DNA of 64,000 bases, taken from the IMG/VR virus record IMGVR_UViG_3300045988_145033, positions 96,001-160,000 of that record. One strand, given 5' to 3'. The notes beneath the pieces were generated by a model. That model saw nothing but the letters and a program-made list of their open reading frames with translations. It was not told the origin of the DNA and searched no databases. Source of the stretch: a virus. This document shows, piece by piece, positions 5,780-62,826 of the stretch. The stretch's first letter is position 1. Each line of letters opens with the position of its first letter. Position numbers and translations under genes: made by a program.

Positions 5780-5791
5780 TATTTTGGTGTT
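5780..5791 (-). promoter_or_regulatory. late promoter AACAccaaaaTA
   Basis: Minus strand, upstream of 4273..5745 (the terminase operon). Confidence 0.4.
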
Positions 5792-6368: not shown

Positions 6369-6396
6369 GTCTACGTTTATTATATATAATTGAAAT
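6369..6396 (-). promoter_or_regulatory. early promoter, class A: TTTCAATTATATATAATAAACGTAGAC
   Basis: One of 11 copies of TATATWATAWAYGTAGAC, all on the minus strand. About 95 nt upstream of the ATG at 6292. Confidence 0.5.
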
Positions 6397-13702: not shown

Positions 13703-13957
13703 AATGTGACAACACTAGATTGTGATAAGTTAGGTATATAACATCTGAAGCTAGAAAAACTGGTACAAGAATATTAGTCGACAATATCTTGGATAGAGTG
13801 TACACAATTAGTTCTAACGTAAGTCCGGTAAACCGCATGGAAGCGTTCAGCAATAGGGCGGAAGTGTTACGAGTGGTTTAGAAGCCTTCGGTAGTTTGAT
13901 GCCTTTATATGCAAACCTTATCACCCGGATAGTCTTTTATACTTTTAGAATATAGAT

Positions 13958-14000
13958 AAAAAAAAATAAAGGGAGGCGAAAGCCTCTCCTTATTTTTATT
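13958..14000. terminator. bidirectional terminator between convergent genes (gggaggcgaaagcctctcc)
   Basis: A9 upstream and T-run downstream. Confidence 0.5.
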
Positions 14001-17915: not shown

Positions 17916-17937
17916 GTCTTATGTATATAATATATAG
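17916..17937 (-). promoter_or_regulatory. class B promoter (6-gene early operon)
   Basis: TATATATTATATACATAAGAC. Confidence 0.45.
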
Positions 17938-32229: not shown

Positions 32230-32237
32230 AAAAAAAT

Positions 32238-32262
32238 AAATGGTGGCGTGATGCCACCATTA
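32238..32262. terminator. bidirectional terminator (aatggtggc-gtga-tgccaccatt)
   Basis: Between convergent 31429..32229 and the primase gene. A9 upstream. Confidence 0.55.
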
Positions 32263-41448: not shown

Positions 41449-41660
41449 TAGTATTCACTTCCTTTACCATACTTATAATCCATAAGTATTGAGTTATATT
41501 CATCTATAGATACTGTAAATTCGGTTTCTCCAGTTTCTTGCTTTTCAAGATAAGGTATTATAACTTCATTTGTATCTTGTGTTAGTTTAACCGTATTCAT
41601 TCTCATAGCTTCTATAATAGCCTCTCTTTTTTCTTTAGTCATTTTCTTATCCCCTTCCAT
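41448..41660 (-). CDS. small hypothetical protein (63-70 aa; start at 41660 or at the internal ATG 41639)
   Basis: ORF in operon context. Confidence 0.35.
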   Translation of the reverse strand: MEGDKKMTKEKREAIIEAMRMNTVKLTQDTNEVIIPYLEKQETGETEFTVSIDEYNSILMDYKYGKGSEY

Positions 41661-45937: not shown

Positions 45938-47824
45938 TTATTCTTCATCATTGAAATTAGGATTGTTTAATTTAACACCCATAGCCATAAATAGAGCATT
46001 TACATTTTGTATACTTTCTTGCTCTGTCATAGAATTTATGTATTTCAAATCATCAGGGTGAAGTGAGTTCACTTGAACGTCAGCAACAAGCGATGATTTT
46101 CTAACTGGTGTATTTCTTATTCTACTTTCACCTGTTCTTAATATAATACCACGAGAGTCAAAGCTACCCTTTGCTCTTAGAGACAACTGAGTTTCAGCAA
46201 CTTGCTTCAAAGGTGTTACAAAAAGTTTAGATACAAATGCTTCTCCTAAACACATTTCTCCATGTTCTGTATTCATATAAACTTTAGTTCTTTTTACGTT
46301 AAGTCCTACAGAGTTCATATAGTTACGAGCTTCATAGCAAGTACCAATAGTAGTTCCACTATGATAAGTAGATTGATACCAACGAATTTGTGGGTCTTTT
46401 ATAAAATCTTCAAATCCGCCATTTTCAAATTCATACTTATAAGCTTCATACATCTTCTTATCCATAATAGATAATATCTTTAAGATATGAGTTTTCATTT
46501 CATCTAGTGGCTTTAGCTTCTCTCTTATAAATCTTTCTATTACCATTGTGATATAAGTTTGAAACATTTCCATCGGAACTTCCATAATAGCACGATTAAA
46601 TAGTGCTAGACAGTTTCCAAGATATTCAAGGTTTCCATATTCTTTTGTGTAATATTTACCACTATTAAATACACTAGAAACTGTGAACTTATTTCCACAT
46701 CTACCTGTAATCTTTTGTCCATTTATAGGAACTTCTCTATCGACAGTTGTAATCTTTAAAACTATTGCTTTCTTTGAAAGTATTTTCTTATATTTAAAAC
46801 CGCCTTCTTTATCATAGATAGTTCTTAAGAAGTTATACTTATCTATAAAATCATATGAGAATTTAGATTCAGAATACTCATCATTTTCATAGAATTCTTT
46901 TAAGGAATCGAGTACCTCTCTTTCATACTTTCTAGTAGCTTCTATAAGTCCCGCAAGATATGTATTTTGACATTGTTCTCCAAGTTTTTGTCTACAAGTT
47001 ATATCAACTACTTTTCCTCTTGCATATACTCTTTTGTCATTCTTATTAACTGAATCCATTCCACTTGCGAGTTTCACTCTTTGATACTCTCCCTTTTGCT
47101 TTGCTATTGCTAAAAGTAAATCATTTTGTATATCTTCTCCTACAAGTGGGAAAGGTCTATAAGTATCATCAGTTCCATATAGATTCTTTAGTATATCATT
47201 ATCGACATCTATTATCTCCTCCGTAACTTGATACTTCCAACCAGCAAATCTTTCAGCTAGGCTCGTAGAAATCAGTCCTGCATCTTCGATAGATTTGACA
47301 TCAATAGATAATACAGATAAAGCATTTACTCCCCATTTATACTCCATATCCTCTCCATATGAATTAGTACGTATGATAGATTCGTCTTTTGGTATTTCAT
47401 CTCCTTCTTTATACGAAGATAAGTCATCTATCATTTTAACTCCATAGCCAGCTCCAGTTTCTTCATATCCGTGGAACTCTATATAGTTAAATTCATCGTT
47501 TTCTTTATCATATAGAATATACGAAGTCACACCACAATATTCTCCATTTATATACTTCGGAATAGCTTTACAAAGTGTATAGTTATTCTCGGCAAATATA
47601 TTTTTAGTAGATTTAAGAATATCATACGAGTATGCTGTATCTACTATTGGAACTTCACCGTTCTCTATTGGACGATACTGGTTCGAGGCATTCGAGAACA
47701 TATTACCTCTATTTTTGGAAACCATACCCTCGTGTGGTATTATGTTACCTTTACCATTGAACCTATCGAGCATTTCATTCCATTCAGGAATTTCCTTGTA
47801 TAGAGTTGTCTTTAATTCTTTCAT
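45938..47824 (-). CDS. multisubunit RNA polymerase beta subunit, C-terminal module
   Basis: GQKITGRCGNKF matches beta GDKMAGRHGNKG. Downstream HGEMCLGEAF matches FGEMEVWALEAYG. N-terminal GNMFSNASNQYRP resembles motif NMQRQAVP. 628 aa. Confidence 0.6.
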   Translation of the reverse strand: MKELKTTLYKEIPEWNEMLDRFNGKGNIIPHEGMVSKNRGNMFSNASNQYRPIENGEVPIVDTAYSYDILKSTKNIFAENNYTLCKAIPKYINGEYCGVTSYILYDKENDEFNYIEFHGYEETGAGYGVKMIDDLSSYKEGDEIPKDESIIRTNSYGEDMEYKWGVNALSVLSIDVKSIEDAGLISTSLAERFAGWKYQVTEEIIDVDNDILKNLYGTDDTYRPFPLVGEDIQNDLLLAIAKQKGEYQRVKLASGMDSVNKNDKRVYARGKVVDITCRQKLGEQCQNTYLAGLIEATRKYEREVLDSLKEFYENDEYSESKFSYDFIDKYNFLRTIYDKEGGFKYKKILSKKAIVLKITTVDREVPINGQKITGRCGNKFTVSSVFNSGKYYTKEYGNLEYLGNCLALFNRAIMEVPMEMFQTYITMVIERFIREKLKPLDEMKTHILKILSIMDKKMYEAYKYEFENGGFEDFIKDPQIRWYQSTYHSGTTIGTCYEARNYMNSVGLNVKRTKVYMNTEHGEMCLGEAFVSKLFVTPLKQVAETQLSLRAKGSFDSRGIILRTGESRIRNTPVRKSSLVADVQVNSLHPDDLKYINSMTEQESIQNVNALFMAMGVKLNNPNFNDEE

Positions 47825-55010: not shown

Positions 55011-55881
55011 AAAAATCTGGAATGTTGATGAAGTCATTTAAGACTTCTCTCTCGAAGTCTTTTGTACATTTCAACTTTACAGACATTATTGTTGAAGGGA
55101 TATTCCATACAGACGGAATATACGATTCAGTATATTGTTTGTGATTTTCTTCTTTTCTATTTTCCTTTAATTTTTCAAGAACTTTTTGTAATATATTTTT
55201 CTTAACTTTAATATACTTCTCATCAGCTTTATAAAGTAAATCCATAGGCATACTAAATACAGGACCTTCGTACACAGTTTCAAAAGTAGACATAATTCTT
55301 TCTCCTACTTCTTTTGGAGAAAGCATATATCTTGTACCTCTACCTATATTAGTTCTAAGTCTATTATTAAAGTCAGTTATATTAGAAAGTATTAAAGCTA
55401 CGAACTCAGAGCATATAAAAGAAGTTTCATTTGCATATTTAGTTATTCTTTTCTTAGGTATCCAAGGAGCAAATCTTGCAAGTTTTCCAAATGAATAAGA
55501 TACCTTTTTATAGTTTTGCTTGAATTGCTCAATATTGTAAACCATCTTCTCATAGGTATCTATTGGAATAAATCTACGAGTTATCTTCATATCTTGGTCT
55601 CTTGCGTGTTCAGGAAACTCAAATATACTCTCAACAGCAACACCATTATTTTTAGCTGTATTTCCTACAGATACAGTTTCATAATAATTCATAGCAACTA
55701 TAGCGTGAGAGTATTTAGAACGAGTAAAGGTTTTGATAACTTTAGATATCCAAGAAGAACCTGATGTAAGAATTACATATATCGGAACCATTCCATTATT
55801 AGTTGCAGCTTCTGAATATAATGTAGACGTTCTTAAAGGATTAAAGATTTCACTTTCAGCTATCTCTTTTAATATACTCAT
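55009..55881 (-). CDS. permuted papain-fold (YiiX/YaeF, NlpC/P60-like) cysteine peptidase candidate
   Basis: His-containing SKYSHAIVAM precedes Cys-containing FICSEFVALI. The His-before-Cys order is typical of permuted NlpC/P60 enzymes. Confidence 0.4.
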   Translation of the reverse strand: MSILKEIAESEIFNPLRTSTLYSEAATNNGMVPIYVILTSGSSWISKVIKTFTRSKYSHAIVAMNYYETVSVGNTAKNNGVAVESIFEFPEHARDQDMKITRRFIPIDTYEKMVYNIEQFKQNYKKVSYSFGKLARFAPWIPKKRITKYANETSFICSEFVALILSNITDFNNRLRTNIGRGTRYMLSPKEVGERIMSTFETVYEGPVFSMPMDLLYKADEKYIKVKKNILQKVLEKLKENRKEENHKQYTESYIPSVWNIPSTIMSVKLKCTKDFEREVLNDFINIPDF

Positions 55882-57047
55882 TTCTTATCACCATCTTTCT
55901 TAGCATCTTTTTCTATTATCTTATCAAGCTCATCTTCAGCTTCTTGTGATTTCTTATATGCCTTTTTGTAATCTTCGTGAATACACTTTCTTTTAAGAGC
56001 TTTAATCCATTCTTCTATAGAGTGCTCTTCTACAAACTTCTCACCTAAGATAATCTTTGATATTATATAAAGATTAGATTCTTTCTCGGTTCTATCCTTA
56101 AAAGTATCGTATGTCATCTTAGCACCTTTACAATAGAATACTTCTATATTTTCCTGAACCTTATCGCTTTCTATATATCTCATAAGATTAACTGTAACCA
56201 TATATCCCTTTGGTGGAAATATAAAGAAAGCAAATCCATCTTCTACATTTCTTATAGGTAGAGCAAAGTATTTATCCTTTTCTCCAGAACCTAATATAAA
56301 TGCTGGAAATTCAACTCCTTCAAATTCTTTTGCGTATTTAGGTGGAGTAAACCAACCTTCACTATATAGTAAAGCGAAGTCTATTCTTGGTGGTATTACA
56401 ACTCTTCCTTTCTTTATGAGTTTCTCTATGGTGATAAAAGTGGAATCGAGTGCTTTTACTTCTTTTTCTCCTTCTACTTGAACGTAGTTAAAATTCCAGT
56501 TATCAAGTATCTCTTTAAAGATAGCGATATTCTTCTTTCTATCCTTTATAAAGTGTGGAGACATATTAGGATTATCAAGTCCGTCTTTTCCAGATATTAT
56601 AAGATTTAAAGGTTTTACAAATATATCAGGAATATGATTTAAGTTCTTACCTTCAAACTTATAAGGAATAACAACAGAAGCTGGTGCTTCTACTTCTTCT
56701 GAAGTATATCCTTTATTATCTAAGTATTCGAGTATTCCGTATTCAATATTTGATAATACTATCTTTTGTCCACCATCTTTAAACGTATAAGTTTTAGCTA
56801 TACTTCTATTAGCCATAAGTTTATCCTTTTGAAATTCAGGAATACTAGCAAGATTGGTAGTTCCATATTTATCAAGCATTCTTTTATTTCTTATCTCTAC
56901 ATACTTCTTGACACAATCATCTGAGCAAAATCTATTGTATCTTCCTTTCTCTTCATTCCAAGAAGTAGGCTTTTTACAGATGACGCATTTACCTATATTT
57001 TTTCTATATTTATTACGCTCTAAAAACGCTTTTTGTTTCTCAGTCAT
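55878..57047 (-). CDS. zinc-ribbon-containing protein, about 389 aa (start at ATG 57047, MTEKQ...)
   Basis: AAAGGAG 8 nt upstream of the ATG at 57047. N-terminal CVIC...C..C cluster. Confidence 0.45.
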   Translation of the reverse strand: MTEKQKAFLERNKYRKNIGKCVICKKPTSWNEEKGRYNRFCSDDCVKKYVEIRNKRMLDKYGTTNLASIPEFQKDKLMANRSIAKTYTFKDGGQKIVLSNIEYGILEYLDNKGYTSEEVEAPASVVIPYKFEGKNLNHIPDIFVKPLNLIISGKDGLDNPNMSPHFIKDRKKNIAIFKEILDNWNFNYVQVEGEKEVKALDSTFITIEKLIKKGRVVIPPRIDFALLYSEGWFTPPKYAKEFEGVEFPAFILGSGEKDKYFALPIRNVEDGFAFFIFPPKGYMVTVNLMRYIESDKVQENIEVFYCKGAKMTYDTFKDRTEKESNLYIISKIILGEKFVEEHSIEEWIKALKRKCIHEDYKKAYKKSQEAEDELDKIIEKDAKKDGDKK

Positions 57048-57097
57048 ATATAACTCCTTTCGGGACAAAACCCCTATTTCTCAACGAAATGTTTTAA

Positions 57098-59383: not shown

Positions 59384-59610
59384 GTTTTTTACATAATGTC
59401 GTTATCATCTTAGAAGGTAAGTATTCATATGAAACTCTAGCAGAAATGCCTATGAGTGAAATAGAAGCTCTACTTCAACATAATCAAGAATTTATAAGGA
59501 TTAGAGATGAGATGATGGAGAAACAAAGACAGAAAGCAGAGCAAGAATCAAGAAACGGAAATAAAAAAGGTAGAACTACTAAAGAACCAATATATTATTA
59601 AAATAAAAAT

Positions 59611-59636
59611 ATATGTGTGGGATATCCCACACATAT
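59611..59636. terminator. perfect 26-nt palindrome atatgtgtgggatatcccacacatat
   Basis: Follows the baseplate gene after an A-run. Bidirectional hairpin. Confidence 0.45.
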
Positions 59637-59728
59637 ATTTAGAAATACAAAATATTTCGGAGATAACTTTTATGAGAAGACAATATAAAGAATATTATCG
59701 ACTTACAAAAAGTTATTTAAGAAGATGT

Positions 59729-60315
59729 GGGACACCCAATGAATATTGATATTGACATTTCAACTCAAAGAAGTGTTCCTAATATTGTAATAAAAGATTT
59801 AGGTAGGCTTTCGCCTACCAATGTCATACATTATTAAATAACTTGTATAAAAGGACACCTAAATAATCTACATAAATTTAAGTACGAGTGATATAATATT
59901 CAAACCGAAAAGGATGAAATTATTTCAAATACGTGTTGTGCATATTTTAAGGTGGGCATATGCCCACCCGAGATGTGTCTTGTTAGTTGAATTTGAACCA
60001 AATAGTTCAAGCTCTCTTCACAAGTGGTAGAATAGGACACCTAAGAGAACCTTGATAAAATCATTATCATGGCTATTAATAGCCATATAAATGTTAAATT
60101 GAGGGGTGGAGCTCAAAGCTCCACACAATAGGACACCTAAGTCATTAATTAAATTTTATTAAGTTTTCTTCATGGGGTATCATACTTTGATATCCAAAAA
60201 AGTAATTAAGAATCTTCTCACTTAAAGAGGATTCTGATTCTTAGAAGAGAAAGTAAAGAGAACTACCTCTATCGTAATTCTCTTTCCTTGTCTAAATGAA
60301 TAAAGTGGGACACCC
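59729..60315 (+). repeat. five copies of a GGACACCYAA motif (plus orientation) at 59729, 59852, 60034, 60130 and 60307, each preceded by a short perfect hairpin
   Basis: Copies are GGGACACCCAA twice and AGGACACCTAA three times. Adjacent hairpins: ggtaggctttcgcctacc, ggtgggcatatgcccacc, gtggagctcaaagctccac. Confidence 0.6.
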
Positions 60316-60405
60316 AAGGTATTATATGATTTCTACATGAGTAATAAGATAACAATTTTTCCAAATGTTTATGCTATCATTTATCTTGTTAGTCAATTTT
60401 AAAAA

Positions 60406-61104
60406 TTACATAGTAACCATACATAGTCCATCTGAGCTATCAAGAGATACAATCTTACCGAATATCTCTTTTATCTCTTTATCATAATCTTCTACAGATT
60501 TATGCTTTTCGTATGTATTTATTATATTATCTAAATAATGAACTATTTGAGCTATTCTTTTAACCCAAGTTTCATCTTTAGCACTTTCTATGTGATGGTC
60601 AGGTTTACCGTCTTTCATTACTATCTTATATATAAGCTCATCAAATACAAAAGTATATACTTTAGCATTATTACCTTCAGGGTGTATAGATAAGCTATCA
60701 AGAACCATAACACTATCAGTTATTGCTTGTTCATTCTCTCTTTTACTCATATCAGTAATAAGTACATTCACATCAAATAACTCATATCCATTATTTCTCA
60801 AATCATTATGAGCTTTATATCTTTCAAGTATAGTCTTATTAGCATCCCAAGTAATATCAGCTTTTTCTATATTATGATTACCTATTACTATTATCTCATT
60901 CTCAGTTCTTATTCTAATAGTAATATCATTATTAAAAGGATGTCCGTTATATATCCCTATTTCAGTTTCTACACTCTTACCTTGCTTTCTATAATGTGAT
61001 GATACACCTTCTACTATATTTGATATAAATATACCTTTATCCTCTTTACTTAAATACTTAGTAGTACCTATTATATCAATATTTAAAACTACCTTACATT
61101 TCAT
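60406..61104 (-). CDS. hypothetical protein, 232 aa
   Basis: RBS AAAGGAGG. Late element AACAttttcgTA upstream. Confidence 0.45.
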   Translation of the reverse strand: MKCKVVLNIDIIGTTKYLSKEDKGIFISNIVEGVSSHYRKQGKSVETEIGIYNGHPFNNDITIRIRTENEIIVIGNHNIEKADITWDANKTILERYKAHNDLRNNGYELFDVNVLITDMSKRENEQAITDSVMVLDSLSIHPEGNNAKVYTFVFDELIYKIVMKDGKPDHHIESAKDETWVKRIAQIVHYLDNIINTYEKHKSVEDYDKEIKEIFGKIVSLDSSDGLCMVTM

Positions 61105-61132
61105 ATTAATTATCCTCCTTTAAACTTAATTA

Positions 61133-61144
61133 TACGAAAATGTT
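61133..61144 (-). promoter_or_regulatory. late promoter AACAttttcgTA
   Basis: Minus strand, upstream of 60406..61104. Confidence 0.4.
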
Positions 61145-61204
61145 CATAAACTCTCAAGTTACAATACTTTTTATTTTTATTAAAAAACTTTTTTCAAAAA
61201 AGTG

Positions 61205-61395
61205 GAAACACTGTTGTGTAAAAAACAACCTTGACGTTGGTTGTTGTCCGAGCAGAGCGAGGAGCTGAAGCGTGAGCGGAACCCCAAACCATCCCGACCG
61301 GTGCCCCTAAGGCAAGGAGTGGAGGGTGGTTAGGGGTTGCCGAGGAACGAGCAAGAACTAATGGCAACGGTGGGAATATCGACCAAGGCAAAAGA
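61205..61395 (-). ncRNA. GC-rich (>55% GC) structured element, candidate small non-coding RNA with its own terminator; identity unknown
   Basis: Sharp GC island in 30% GC DNA. The only ORF here (65 aa) is Pro/Ala-rich, unlike every other protein. Minus-strand hairpin ACAACC-N8-GGTTGT plus T5 lies at 61218-61244. Confidence 0.35.
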
Positions 61396-61500
61396 ATAAA
61401 TAAAAATATAATATAAATGTTACTAAATATACAGAAATAGTAATCCTAAATGGATTATTAATTAATATAAAAAATTATAAACAACATATTGCAGTAGCAA

Positions 61501-61540
61501 AAAAGAAACGGCTTCGCCTACTCCGCCTGCGGCGAGCCAT
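61501..61540 (-). terminator. GC-rich hairpin plus U-run (minus strand)
   Basis: Revcomp ggctcgccgcaggcggagtaggcgaagcc then GTTTCTTTTTT. Confidence 0.4.
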
Positions 61541-61686
61541 ACGATACTGGTTACAGTAGTAGTAATACTATATGTAAATACTTATATAAACAAAATAAAT
61601 GATATTATTTGAGATAAGTATGTCAAAAATGTAATAGTAATATTTCGTTTTTAATTCAGCCTTATTTAGAATTTTTCTTCTAAAAA

Positions 61687-61714
61687 TATATACTCCCGAT
61701 ATGGGAGTATATAT
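61687..61714. terminator. palindromic terminator (atatactccc-gatat-gggagtatat)
   Basis: Same family. Confidence 0.5.
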
Positions 61715-62346: not shown

Positions 62347-62586
62347 ATGGATTTAAAGAATACTAATAATACAATATCATCTAAAATATATAATATTCCT
62401 AAAGTAGTATTTAAAGAAGGAAGTTTAAAAATAACAGCAGGAGCTATGAGGGAAATAGTTGATATGTTATGTATAAAAGATGTAGATAATGTATTAGAAG
62501 AATTAGGAAAGATAATTCCTGTTAGTGAATCTCTTAAAAGTGATATAAAGATTAGAAATGGATTGCTTACAAACTGTAAAGTGTAA
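62347..62586 (+). CDS. hypothetical protein, 79 aa (start at ATG 62347)
   Basis: AAAGGAGG precedes the ATG at 62347. The track start at 62290 lacks an RBS. Confidence 0.4.
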   Translation: MDLKNTNNTISSKIYNIPKVVFKEGSLKITAGAMREIVDMLCIKDVDNVLEELGKIIPVSESLKSDIKIRNGLLTNCKV

Positions 62587-62601
62587 AGGAGGATTGGGAA
62601 T

Positions 62602-62820
62602 ATGTTTGAGAATTTGGCTCCGGTTACCCCCCTTGAAATTACGGTAATGAACTCAATAAAAATATCATTTTATTTCTATGCTGGAGTAGTATGTGCATAT
62701 CTTTTGACAAGACTTGAAGGAGATATGGAATCGCCATATATAGATAATGCGATAAAAGTTTTAGATATATGGTTTTTTACTTCAATTACAATGTATATAC
62801 TTCTAAAGATAGCGGGGTGA
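62602..62820 (+). CDS. small membrane protein, 72 aa
   Basis: RBS AAGGAGG. Two hydrophobic segments. Confidence 0.45.
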   Translation: MFENLAPVTPLEITVMNSIKISFYFYAGVVCAYLLTRLEGDMESPYIDNAIKVLDIWFFTSITMYILLKIAG

Positions 62821-62826
62821 TATTAA

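Follow-up and report, generated by a model that had tools for sequence, protein, structure and literature searches.

The 64,000-nucleotide stretch of viral DNA analysed here (the window; positions 96,001 to 160,000 of IMG/VR record IMGVR_UViG_3300045988_145033) contains, at 59602-60405, its longest run free of open reading frames (ORFs). The gap carries five plus-strand copies of the motif GGACACCYAA and is referred to below as array II. An original prediction, made from the letters alone, had also described it as the largest gene-free stretch, and had read it either as a set of activator-dependent host-type promoters or as a replication origin. The evidence presented here favours small non-coding transcription units arranged in tandem along the opposite strand.

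GGACACCYAA has eight exact matches in the window, where shuffled sequences are expected to give 0.06 and none of 100 shuffles reached eight. Five of the matches make up array II (plus strand; 59730, 59853, 60035, 60131 and 60308, spanning 59730-60317 at spacings of 123, 182, 96 and 177 nucleotides, nt), and three lie on the minus strand at 1140, 1219 and 1303 (span 1140-1312), a locus referred to as array I. The exact-match count bears out the five-copy array as it had been described, coordinates included. Read along the minus strand from 60405 to 59600, the locus contains the following features, each with its basis.

60406-61104, minus: gene whose stop lies 16 nt before the putative promoter P5
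60378-60390, minus: P5, putative variant late promoter AACAAGATAAATG with N7 spacing; the stretch is conserved in five of five phages
60307-60315, minus: M5', mini-hairpin GGG-UGU-CCC (motif, covariation)
60255-60285, minus: H5, terminator-like hairpin 22 nt past M5' (terminator scan)
60194-60234, minus: terminator-like hairpin GAAUCCUCU...AGAAGAUUC followed by UUAAUUACUUUUUUGG (sequence reading; A-run and T-run invariant in five phages)
60130-60138, minus: M4', mini-hairpin AGG-UGU-CCU, with no canonical late promoter found upstream (motif)
60107-60125, minus: H4, hairpin 4 nt past M4', with a cUUCGg loop in relatives (sequence, alignment)
60084-60095, minus: P3, late-type promoter AACATTTATATG (exact match, alignment)
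60070-60087, minus: H3, palindrome ATGGCTATTAATAGCCAT, invariant in five phages
60034-60042, minus: M3', mini-hairpin AGG-UGU-CCU (motif, covariation)
59952-59969, minus: H2, GC-rich hairpin that would end unit 3, with a GAAA loop in JD-Fnp1 and a weak U tail (alignment)
59926-59937, minus: P2, late-type promoter AACACGTATTTG (exact match, alignment)
59852-59860, minus: M2', mini-hairpin AGG-UGU-CCU (motif, covariation)
59802-59819, minus: H1, terminator-like hairpin of unit 2, with a GAAA loop and the tail UAAAUCUUUU (terminator scan)
59766-59777, minus: P1, AR9-type late promoter AACACTTCTTTG (exact match; AACA and TG invariant in five phages)
59729-59737, minus: M1', mini-hairpin GGG-UGU-CCC, the reverse complement of motif copy 1 (motif, covariation)
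59607-59640, both strands: T0, long GC-cored hairpin flanked by a T-run at either end, terminator-like on the minus strand

Sequence similarity places the window in a ~180-kb phage of Fusobacterium nucleatum: the region is 80-87% identical to JD-Fnp1, JD-Fnp4, JD-Fnp6 and JD-Fnp7, four F. nucleatum phages of 175-180 kb. A second clade, clade B, is more distant, with a neighbouring protein 55% identical and a terminase 68-69% identical, and terminase-based scans of viral and metagenome contigs for wider relatives returned the same two clades only. The phage has a primase, a helicase and a polymerase of its own, and several genes for fragments of RNA polymerase beta/beta' are annotated in JD-Fnp4. 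In the window, a 628-aa beta-like ORF (45938-47824, minus strand) has as its nearest relatives outside Fusobacterium phages the beta subunits of non-virion polymerases of the AR9, PBS1 and Staphylococcus S6 type. The paper on the isolation of the JD-Fnp phages makes no mention of promoters or repeats, and the neighbouring proteins (148, 594, 51, 232, 174, 134 and 90 aa) gave zero Pfam or PHROG matches.

The mini-hairpin and its covarying stem

GGACACCYAA is one strand of a mini-hairpin, NNG-ACA-CNN. On the opposite strand, its RNA-sense form reads 5'-(U)U-NNG-UGU-CNN-(A)-3', or 5'-UU-RGG-UGU-CCY in array II. Stem covariation was measured over 48 distinct copies from the two phage clades. The closing G-C pair is present in 48 of 48 copies; the second pair is GC in 29, CG in 13, AU in 4 and GU in 1, and the third is AU in 24, GC in 22, CG in 1 and GU in 1. 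At both of these positions, then, three to four pair types occur and pairing never or almost never fails. The covariation score was 0.55 as compared to 0.19 in shuffles, none of 500 of which reached 0.55, and registers slid along the sequence gave at most 0.23. A fourth pair, U-A, is optional, the bases beside GGACACC covary as A...T or G...C, and a loop variant, CGU, is also found. Such a stem, free in sequence and constrained in pairing, implies a folded single strand rather than a duplex site bound by protein; a duplex-DNA activator site, the role originally proposed for the motif, would not require its flanks to covary. No positions are conserved among the motif copies within -40 to +70 beyond the 11-13-nt motif itself. 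Two G·U intermediates occur in the core stem (GGG-UGU-CCU in the relative L010 and GGG-UGU-CUC in JD-Fnp4), both on the minus-sense strand; the other strand would give A·C.

The hairpin is restricted to non-coding gaps. Across the whole JD-Fnp4 genome, GGACRCC marks five non-coding gaps, including the genome's three longest, and its other matches comprise one in coding sequence and one within a terminator stem. Almost all GACAC occurrences in the motif-bearing gaps have paired flanks, as against one of six in other gaps, which is part of a terminator. No mini-hairpins were found in mRNA leaders, and solely at array III of JD-Fnp4 does one precede a gene. The distant clade lacks GGACACC, but NNG-ACA-CNN stands at the same two syntenic places in the same copy number, with the stems ACG/CGT, GCG/CGC, GAG/CTC, AAG/CTT and CCG/CGG. 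In array I, the orthologous copies of clade B have the stems CCG/CGG, GCG/CGC and ACG/CGT, and in the copies after the terminase gene AGG/CCT is swapped for CCG/CGG or GCG/CGC in orthologues. Between the clades, the arrays cannot be aligned save for promoter, hairpin and terminator.

Two further elements of JD-Fnp4 (41463-41648 and 167736-167971) are paralogous and enclose a GGG-(A/C)GT-CCC mini-hairpin in a 16-bp stem (ACAAGTAGAATAGAAT/...). The first of them is absent from the window, where the corresponding place (32230-32259) has a bidirectional terminator alone.

Late-type promoters and terminator-like hairpins

The non-virion polymerase of phage AR9 recognizes the late consensus AACA-N6-T[AG] (PMC5312081; PMC9209446), and an AR9-type late promoter was defined here as non-template AACA at -11 to -8, six free bases, T at -1 and A or G at +1. 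Regions upstream of JD-Fnp4 genes yield two motifs: an early-like one, TATATATTAT-ATATGTAG, which resembles the AR9 virion-polymerase early consensus AAATATATATTAT-N6-G, and a late-like one, AACA-N6-TA/G, which is identical to the AR9 late consensus. The window contains 26 copies of AACA-N6-T[AG] where shuffles give 111±9, an about 4-fold depletion, and JD-Fnp4 contains 70 where its composition predicts ~395; 39 of these 70 lie on the sense strand, 23-78 nt upstream of start codons. These figures indicate that the late motif is under strong selection and marks real promoters in the phage.

Array II has three exact late promoters, all on the minus strand (59777-59766, 59937-59926 and 60095-60084), plus an N7 variant on the same strand (60390-60378). 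They sit 40-77 nt upstream of M1', M2', M3' and M5'; P1, with a predicted start at G 59766, is 40 nt upstream of M1', measured start to start. In an alignment of five phages the AACA and TG are invariant and the N6 varies. Overall, an exact promoter is found no more than 110 nt upstream of 10 of 14 hairpins, with 2% expected for each (P ~2e-14), and on the GGACACC strand inside the arrays examined the single late motif belongs to gene 114, whose promoter lies at the margin of array III. Thirteen late promoters of JD-Fnp4 precede no gene and all of them end in TG, giving a G start, whereas the gene promoters of this phage are TA in 24 cases and TG in 15 (Fisher 6e-5); the promoters of the non-coding units may form a distinct subclass.

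The layout of promoter followed by hairpin recurs at three more JD-Fnp4 loci and in the distant clade. Array III of JD-Fnp4 has four promoters alternating with four hairpins, and a single-copy locus has one promoter and then a hairpin. In clade B (L013), promoter and hairpin follow one another four times, the promoters being two exact N6 forms, one N7 form and one GACA variant. The elements of array I are as follows.

1142-1150, 1221-1229 and 1305-1313, plus (taken as RNA sense): three mini-hairpins, downstream of the large terminase operon
887-961, plus: conserved 76-nt block at the far end of the gap that holds array I, with cACAATTAAATAG and TTGATA-N15-TGTATAAT directed towards the array

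The block is 84% identical to clade B and the rest of the array I gap is unalignable; we regard it as a candidate, non-canonical promoter of an array I RNA.

An intrinsic terminator was taken to be a GC-rich hairpin that runs into a U-tract on the strand being transcribed. Four perfect hairpins had been named in the original prediction, and all were located (59802-59819, 59952-59969, 60070-60087 and 60107-60125). The broader statement that such a hairpin precedes every motif copy does not extend to copies 1 and 5: before copy 1 lies just the terminator (59607-59640) of the upstream 51-aa ORF, 88 nt off, and before copy 5 the imperfect hairpin at 60255-60285. Likewise, the hairpins do lack U-tracts on the plus strand, as claimed, but not on the minus strand, where three intrinsic-terminator-like structures were found as compared to 0.3 expected (59640-59607, 59819-59802 and 60285-60255). 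One of these three U-rich-tailed hairpins is among the four named. Put in terms of the feature list, T0, H1 and H5 qualify on the minus strand (3 of 5), and H2 and H4 are hairpins with weak tails. The minus-strand loops are GAAA (H1, and H2 in JD-Fnp1) and cUUCGg (H4 in four phages). The H1 stem GGTAGGC/GCCTACC becomes GGCAGGG/CCCTGCC in JD-Fnp1 with its T-rich tail retained, and the T0 stem also has compensatory changes between phages. GC-rich 7-bp tetraloop hairpins end ordinary genes of the phage as well, and conserved GC-hairpin terminators are typical of phiKZ (PMC10914365).

T0 terminates the plus-strand 51-aa ORF (59446-59601), and minus-strand unit 1 is predicted to end there too. Between each of P3, P2 and P1 and the hairpin before it lie 11-24 nt, and H3 overlaps the predicted start of unit 3, where it would form a 5'-terminal RNA hairpin. 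The predicted RNAs are ~125-165 nt long, and those of units 1-3 form more stable folds than shuffled sequences do (z from -2.5 to -6.5). Promoters confined to the minus strand, the loops and U-rich tails of the hairpins and the G·U intermediates together imply that the functional strand is the one opposite to that originally proposed.

The late motifs of the window provide a usable promoter map, as most of them precede an ORF start by a few tens of nt, as at 5780(-), 6716(+), 8897(+), 21734(-)/21759(+), 39920(-) and 57082(-)/57098(+). The early-like TATATATTAT-ATATGTAG occurs upstream of genes at 17936, 45926, 47883 and 55008 (minus strand), one site being upstream of the RNA-polymerase beta-like gene. 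A second AT-rich, promoter-like motif, AATTATATATAATAAA(TGTAG), is found at 6376, 15517, 18318 and 49066 (minus strand; four copies where 0.16 would be expected); in JD-Fnp4 a conserved leader hairpin, cttaagaaggcttaag, comes after it, ahead of several small genes. An orphan late-type promoter, AACACTAGATTG (13711-13722, plus), stands in the convergent gap 13703-13995 and again in the orthologous JD-Fnp4 gap at 62534-62825. The gap 61105-61714 has orphan plus-strand late-type promoters at 61207 (AACACTGTTGTG) and 61480 (AACAACATATTG), which run antisense to the genes on either side. Downstream of the first comes a GC-rich stretch of ~200 nt (61207-61420) with a long imperfect hairpin (-63.9 kcal/mol, z -3.8) and no Rfam match. 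A GC-rich block occupies the matching place in the distant clade (L013, 7450-7630), and 61207-61420 (plus) is a candidate structured non-coding RNA. At 127624-127656 in array III of JD-Fnp4, a 13-bp hairpin with the T-loop-like heptaloop GGG-TTCAATC-CCC lies on the GGACACC strand and resembles a tRNA acceptor/T-arm minihelix; ARAGORN called no tRNA there.

Proposed small transcription units and competing explanations

We propose, at a probability of about 0.62, that 59600-60405 holds about five small non-coding transcription units in tandem, which a phage polymerase would read on the minus strand, probably late. That the units are transcribed, that they are late and that the enzyme is the phage's own is what we infer from the anatomy of the sequence. 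Each unit would begin at an AR9 non-virion-type promoter, AACA-N6-TG, with G as its first nucleotide (canonical in units 1-3, of the N7 form in unit 5, not found in unit 4). An unconserved leader would follow, with the hairpin beginning 40-77 nt after the promoter, and then the conserved mini-hairpin, the reverse complement of GGACACCYAA. A GC-rich terminator-type hairpin 4-88 nt beyond it would end the transcript, and in units 1-3 the next promoter would come 11-24 nt later. Neither the promoter-hairpin distance nor the hairpin-terminator distance is constant, so the mini-hairpin looks like an independent RNA module. Our best guess is that it serves as a common recognition tag, a binding or processing site for one protein, on otherwise unrelated RNAs. 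That the units cannot be aligned between clades speaks against seeds for base pairing and suggests that what matters is the hairpin or transcription itself; we would guess that the arrays encode tagged or decoy RNAs of one family and not regulators that act by base pairing. A search of the remaining phage genome for sequences complementary to the array RNAs gave chance-length matches and paralogous hairpins only.

Several results weigh against this proposal. Unit 4 has no recognizable promoter and unit 5 just the N7 variant, and no canonical late promoter lies between the three hairpins of array I. Folding energies do not discriminate between the strands, and some terminator signals point the other way: the single strong internal hairpin of array I has its U-rich tail on the GGACACC strand, one hairpin-plus-UUUUU terminator of JD-Fnp4 array III is on that strand too, and in clade B a strong T11 terminator lies between the first promoter and its hairpin. 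With a 3-4-bp stem and a triloop, the mini-hairpin is barely stable alone, and minimum-free-energy folding yields it in two of the five predicted RNAs. Lastly, BLAST of the window and JD-Fnp4 detected no homologue of gp226, the AR9 specificity subunit, so that the assignment of the polymerase depends on motif identity and the beta-subunit relationship.

The part of the original prediction that envisaged very short transcripts holds to the extent that non-coding ones are supported by the promoter and terminator anatomy. The observation itself is confirmed and its interpretation is right in part, short non-coding transcripts being likely; the strand, the polymerase and the roles assigned to motif and hairpins were in error. 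Nor does the micro-ORF offered as an example behave as a gene: the ORF at 59672 encodes 25 aa, not 21, and indels of 1 and 2 nt between phages alter its frame while the nucleotides are conserved. A 1-nt indel likewise shifts the frame of the ORF at 59914, and protein-coding micro-ORFs were rejected on these grounds.

Among the alternatives, cis-acting control of transcription survives best, and even so we consider it unlikely. The nascent mini-hairpin would be a nut- or put-like signal or an attenuator that alters the response of the phage polymerase to the next terminator, and the units would be read-through switches instead of stable RNAs with their own function. Lambda pL-nutL-tL1 and PR'-tR' have a promoter, then a hairpin signal, then a terminator, and the units match this order with a hairpin of conserved loop and free stem. 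Like boxB of lambda nut, the mini-hairpin is small, with a conserved loop and a covarying stem between promoter and terminator. However, boxB has a 5-bp stem, a pentaloop and an adjacent boxA and controls downstream genes, whereas the units have a 3-4-bp stem, a triloop, no boxA and no genes downstream. Parts of the hairpin also resemble terminator arms (I3, I13 and an alternative pairing), and short terminated late transcripts can arise as by-products of such control (PMC7547250). Yet at every locus read-through would run antisense into neighbouring genes for >2 kb, so nothing would be switched on; moreover, the hairpin-terminator distance ranges from 4 to 88 nt, and the local 7-bp GC hairpins would outcompete any long-range antiterminator.

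A promoter-mimic decoy resembling 6S RNA seems to us a little less probable again. The AR9 enzyme reads single-stranded 3'-UUGU-5' (-11 to -8), with U-10 flipped into a pocket, and requires uracil in place of thymine (PMC9209446); the UGU triloop would copy this template-strand core, so that late RNAs titrate or park the phage polymerase through its specificity subunit. Read 3' to 5', the hairpin gives C-U-G-U, which matches -10 to -8, and the RNAs would come from that polymerase's own type of promoter. Such a three-base match is nonetheless weak (a chance of 1 in 64), the base at -11, which AR9 requires, is a paired C here, and CGU loops also occur; the failure to detect a gp226 homologue counts against the decoy as well, as does the finding that the 85 kb of AR9 sampled contain no mini-hairpin arrays. 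Were this reading true, a phage would have its own equivalent of 6S RNA, acting on a non-canonical polymerase, and the AACA-N6 promoters would be a further hint that a Fusobacterium phage has uracil in its DNA.

Slightly further down we place a transcription-primed replication origin, in which phage promoters fire into AT-rich non-coding DNA and the hairpins mark primer processing or protein loading, as at the T7 primary origin and T4 oriF and oriG. Several phage promoters do lie within the longest AT-rich non-coding gaps, at several loci per genome, and the phage's primase, helicase and polymerase would fit. A terminator-like hairpin soon after each promoter does not, and the G·U pairs indicate RNA over duplex DNA. 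GC skew tracks gene strand only, without an origin signal, and regularly spaced iterons are lacking. The simpler origin or iteron locus of the original prediction is not supported, because the spacing is irregular and the stem bases vary and covary; there are, besides, at least four such loci per genome.

Structural DNA repeats (REP-like, packaging or partition sites) shielded from transcription by terminators on both strands are a very doubtful alternative. The arrays do hold terminator-like hairpins with tails on either strand, and array I adjoins the large terminase gene; against this, the arrays carry conserved promoters and so are not transcription-free, they number at least four per genome, and the asymmetric loop keeps a fixed orientation relative to the promoters.

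The least probable by our estimate is the original model itself, a duplex activator site for host sigma-A promoters on the plus strand giving tiny RNAs or micro-ORFs: the -10-like TATAAT (59892) and TATTAAT (60074) do lie 29 nt past motif copies 2 and 3, TTGATA-N16-TATTAAT is present at copy 3, and a conserved extended -10 (TGATATAAT, 59889-59897), AGGACA-N16-TAAAAT with TG on the plus strand and AGGACA-N17-TATAAT at array I speak for it, but no conserved element lies at a fixed distance among the copies, sigma-70-like sites in the region are not enriched over shuffles (4 found, 6.7 expected), the covarying, sequence-free stem is unlike a duplex half-site, the micro-ORF frame is not conserved and related phages of this type rely on polymerases of their own for transcription (PMC5312081).

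Other candidates were tried and rejected. When the motif was read as a -35 element, or on the plus strand as a GACA-N6-TR promoter, just two to three copies fitted and they had no common register. As a general promoter of the phage it fails because the early-like and late-like motifs differ from it and the hairpin does not stand before genes except at array III. A CRISPR array or an RNA anti-CRISPR repeat mimic, which should have identical repeats of 25-40 nt between uniform spacers or else copy a host repeat, does not agree, judged from the architecture of the arrays, with a shared element of 11 nt, variable stem bases and spacers of 85-170 nt, and the JD-Fnp4 "Cas system-associated protein", considered as a Cas6-like processing enzyme, is an SF2 helicase. 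A half-site, AATAGCCAT, common to arrays I and II is within chance. Searches for tRNA, tmRNA and Rfam 15 families over the window and 150 kb of JD-Fnp4 gave no tRNA and no gathering-level matches; at a relaxed E-value, the region itself gave chance-level matches alone (E ~1). The unit layout had no match in Rfam or in the literature searched.

Compared with known systems, the proposed units share with the late units of AR9 and PBS1 an identical promoter consensus, its avoidance elsewhere, its position ~40 nt upstream of start codons and a related beta subunit (PMC5312081). They differ in the 13 gene-less, TG-ending promoters of JD-Fnp4, in the mini-hairpin arrays that the AR9 sample lacks and in the undetected gp226. 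Intergenic small RNAs (sRNAs) of the giant phages phiKZ and 201phi2-1 are likewise short promoter-terminator units in phages with their own multisubunit polymerases (PMC11512511). Those sRNAs, however, are single loci defined by sequencing rather than tandem arrays with a structural tag, and have no sequence or motif relationship to the present units. Among bacterial RNAs, LhrC1-5 and Qrr1-5 are tandem sibling sRNAs, and CsrB and RsmZ are multi-hairpin sponge RNAs. The units resemble these in being head-to-tail sRNA genes with the same short hairpin motif in each and, as in the sponge RNAs, with freely evolving sequence between the motifs. In contrast, LhrC and Qrr siblings are homologous over their full length, while the units share an 11-nt hairpin alone, and CsrA-type motifs present GGA in the loop, where the loop here is UGU and the GG is in the stem. 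The hairpin promoters of the N4 virion polymerase also combine a short stem with a 3-nt loop and cluster in non-coding DNA. They are, however, DNA promoter elements that keep a fixed distance to the start site and serve a giant single-subunit polymerase, and no such polymerase or register was found here: the 2978-aa protein of JD-Fnp4 has a C39 peptidase domain alone and no relative in the PDB.

On this reading of the sequence, the element is a set of phage sRNA genes with an unusual shared structural tag. If transcribed, the phage family's three longest non-coding gaps (904, 786 and 689 nt in JD-Fnp4) would yield ~13 sRNAs that share only a triloop hairpin, which would point to a dedicated RNA-protein system in this phage group. 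The promoter grammar, an AR9-like early motif plus an avoided late motif, applies to F. nucleatum phages that are discussed for therapy, and would extend the type of polymerase that reads the template strand beyond the uracil-DNA phages of Bacillus and Staphylococcus. The exact predicted starts and ends make the units testable. For annotation, regions of this kind are easily mis-read as host-type promoters, iterons or micro-ORFs, a reading that the present one corrects. A separate annotation matter concerns 55878-57068 (minus strand) of the window, whose orthologue is labelled "DNA gyrase subunit A" in GenBank: the protein matched no gyrase family and instead matches the phage endonuclease family phrog_15137 (E 2e-25).

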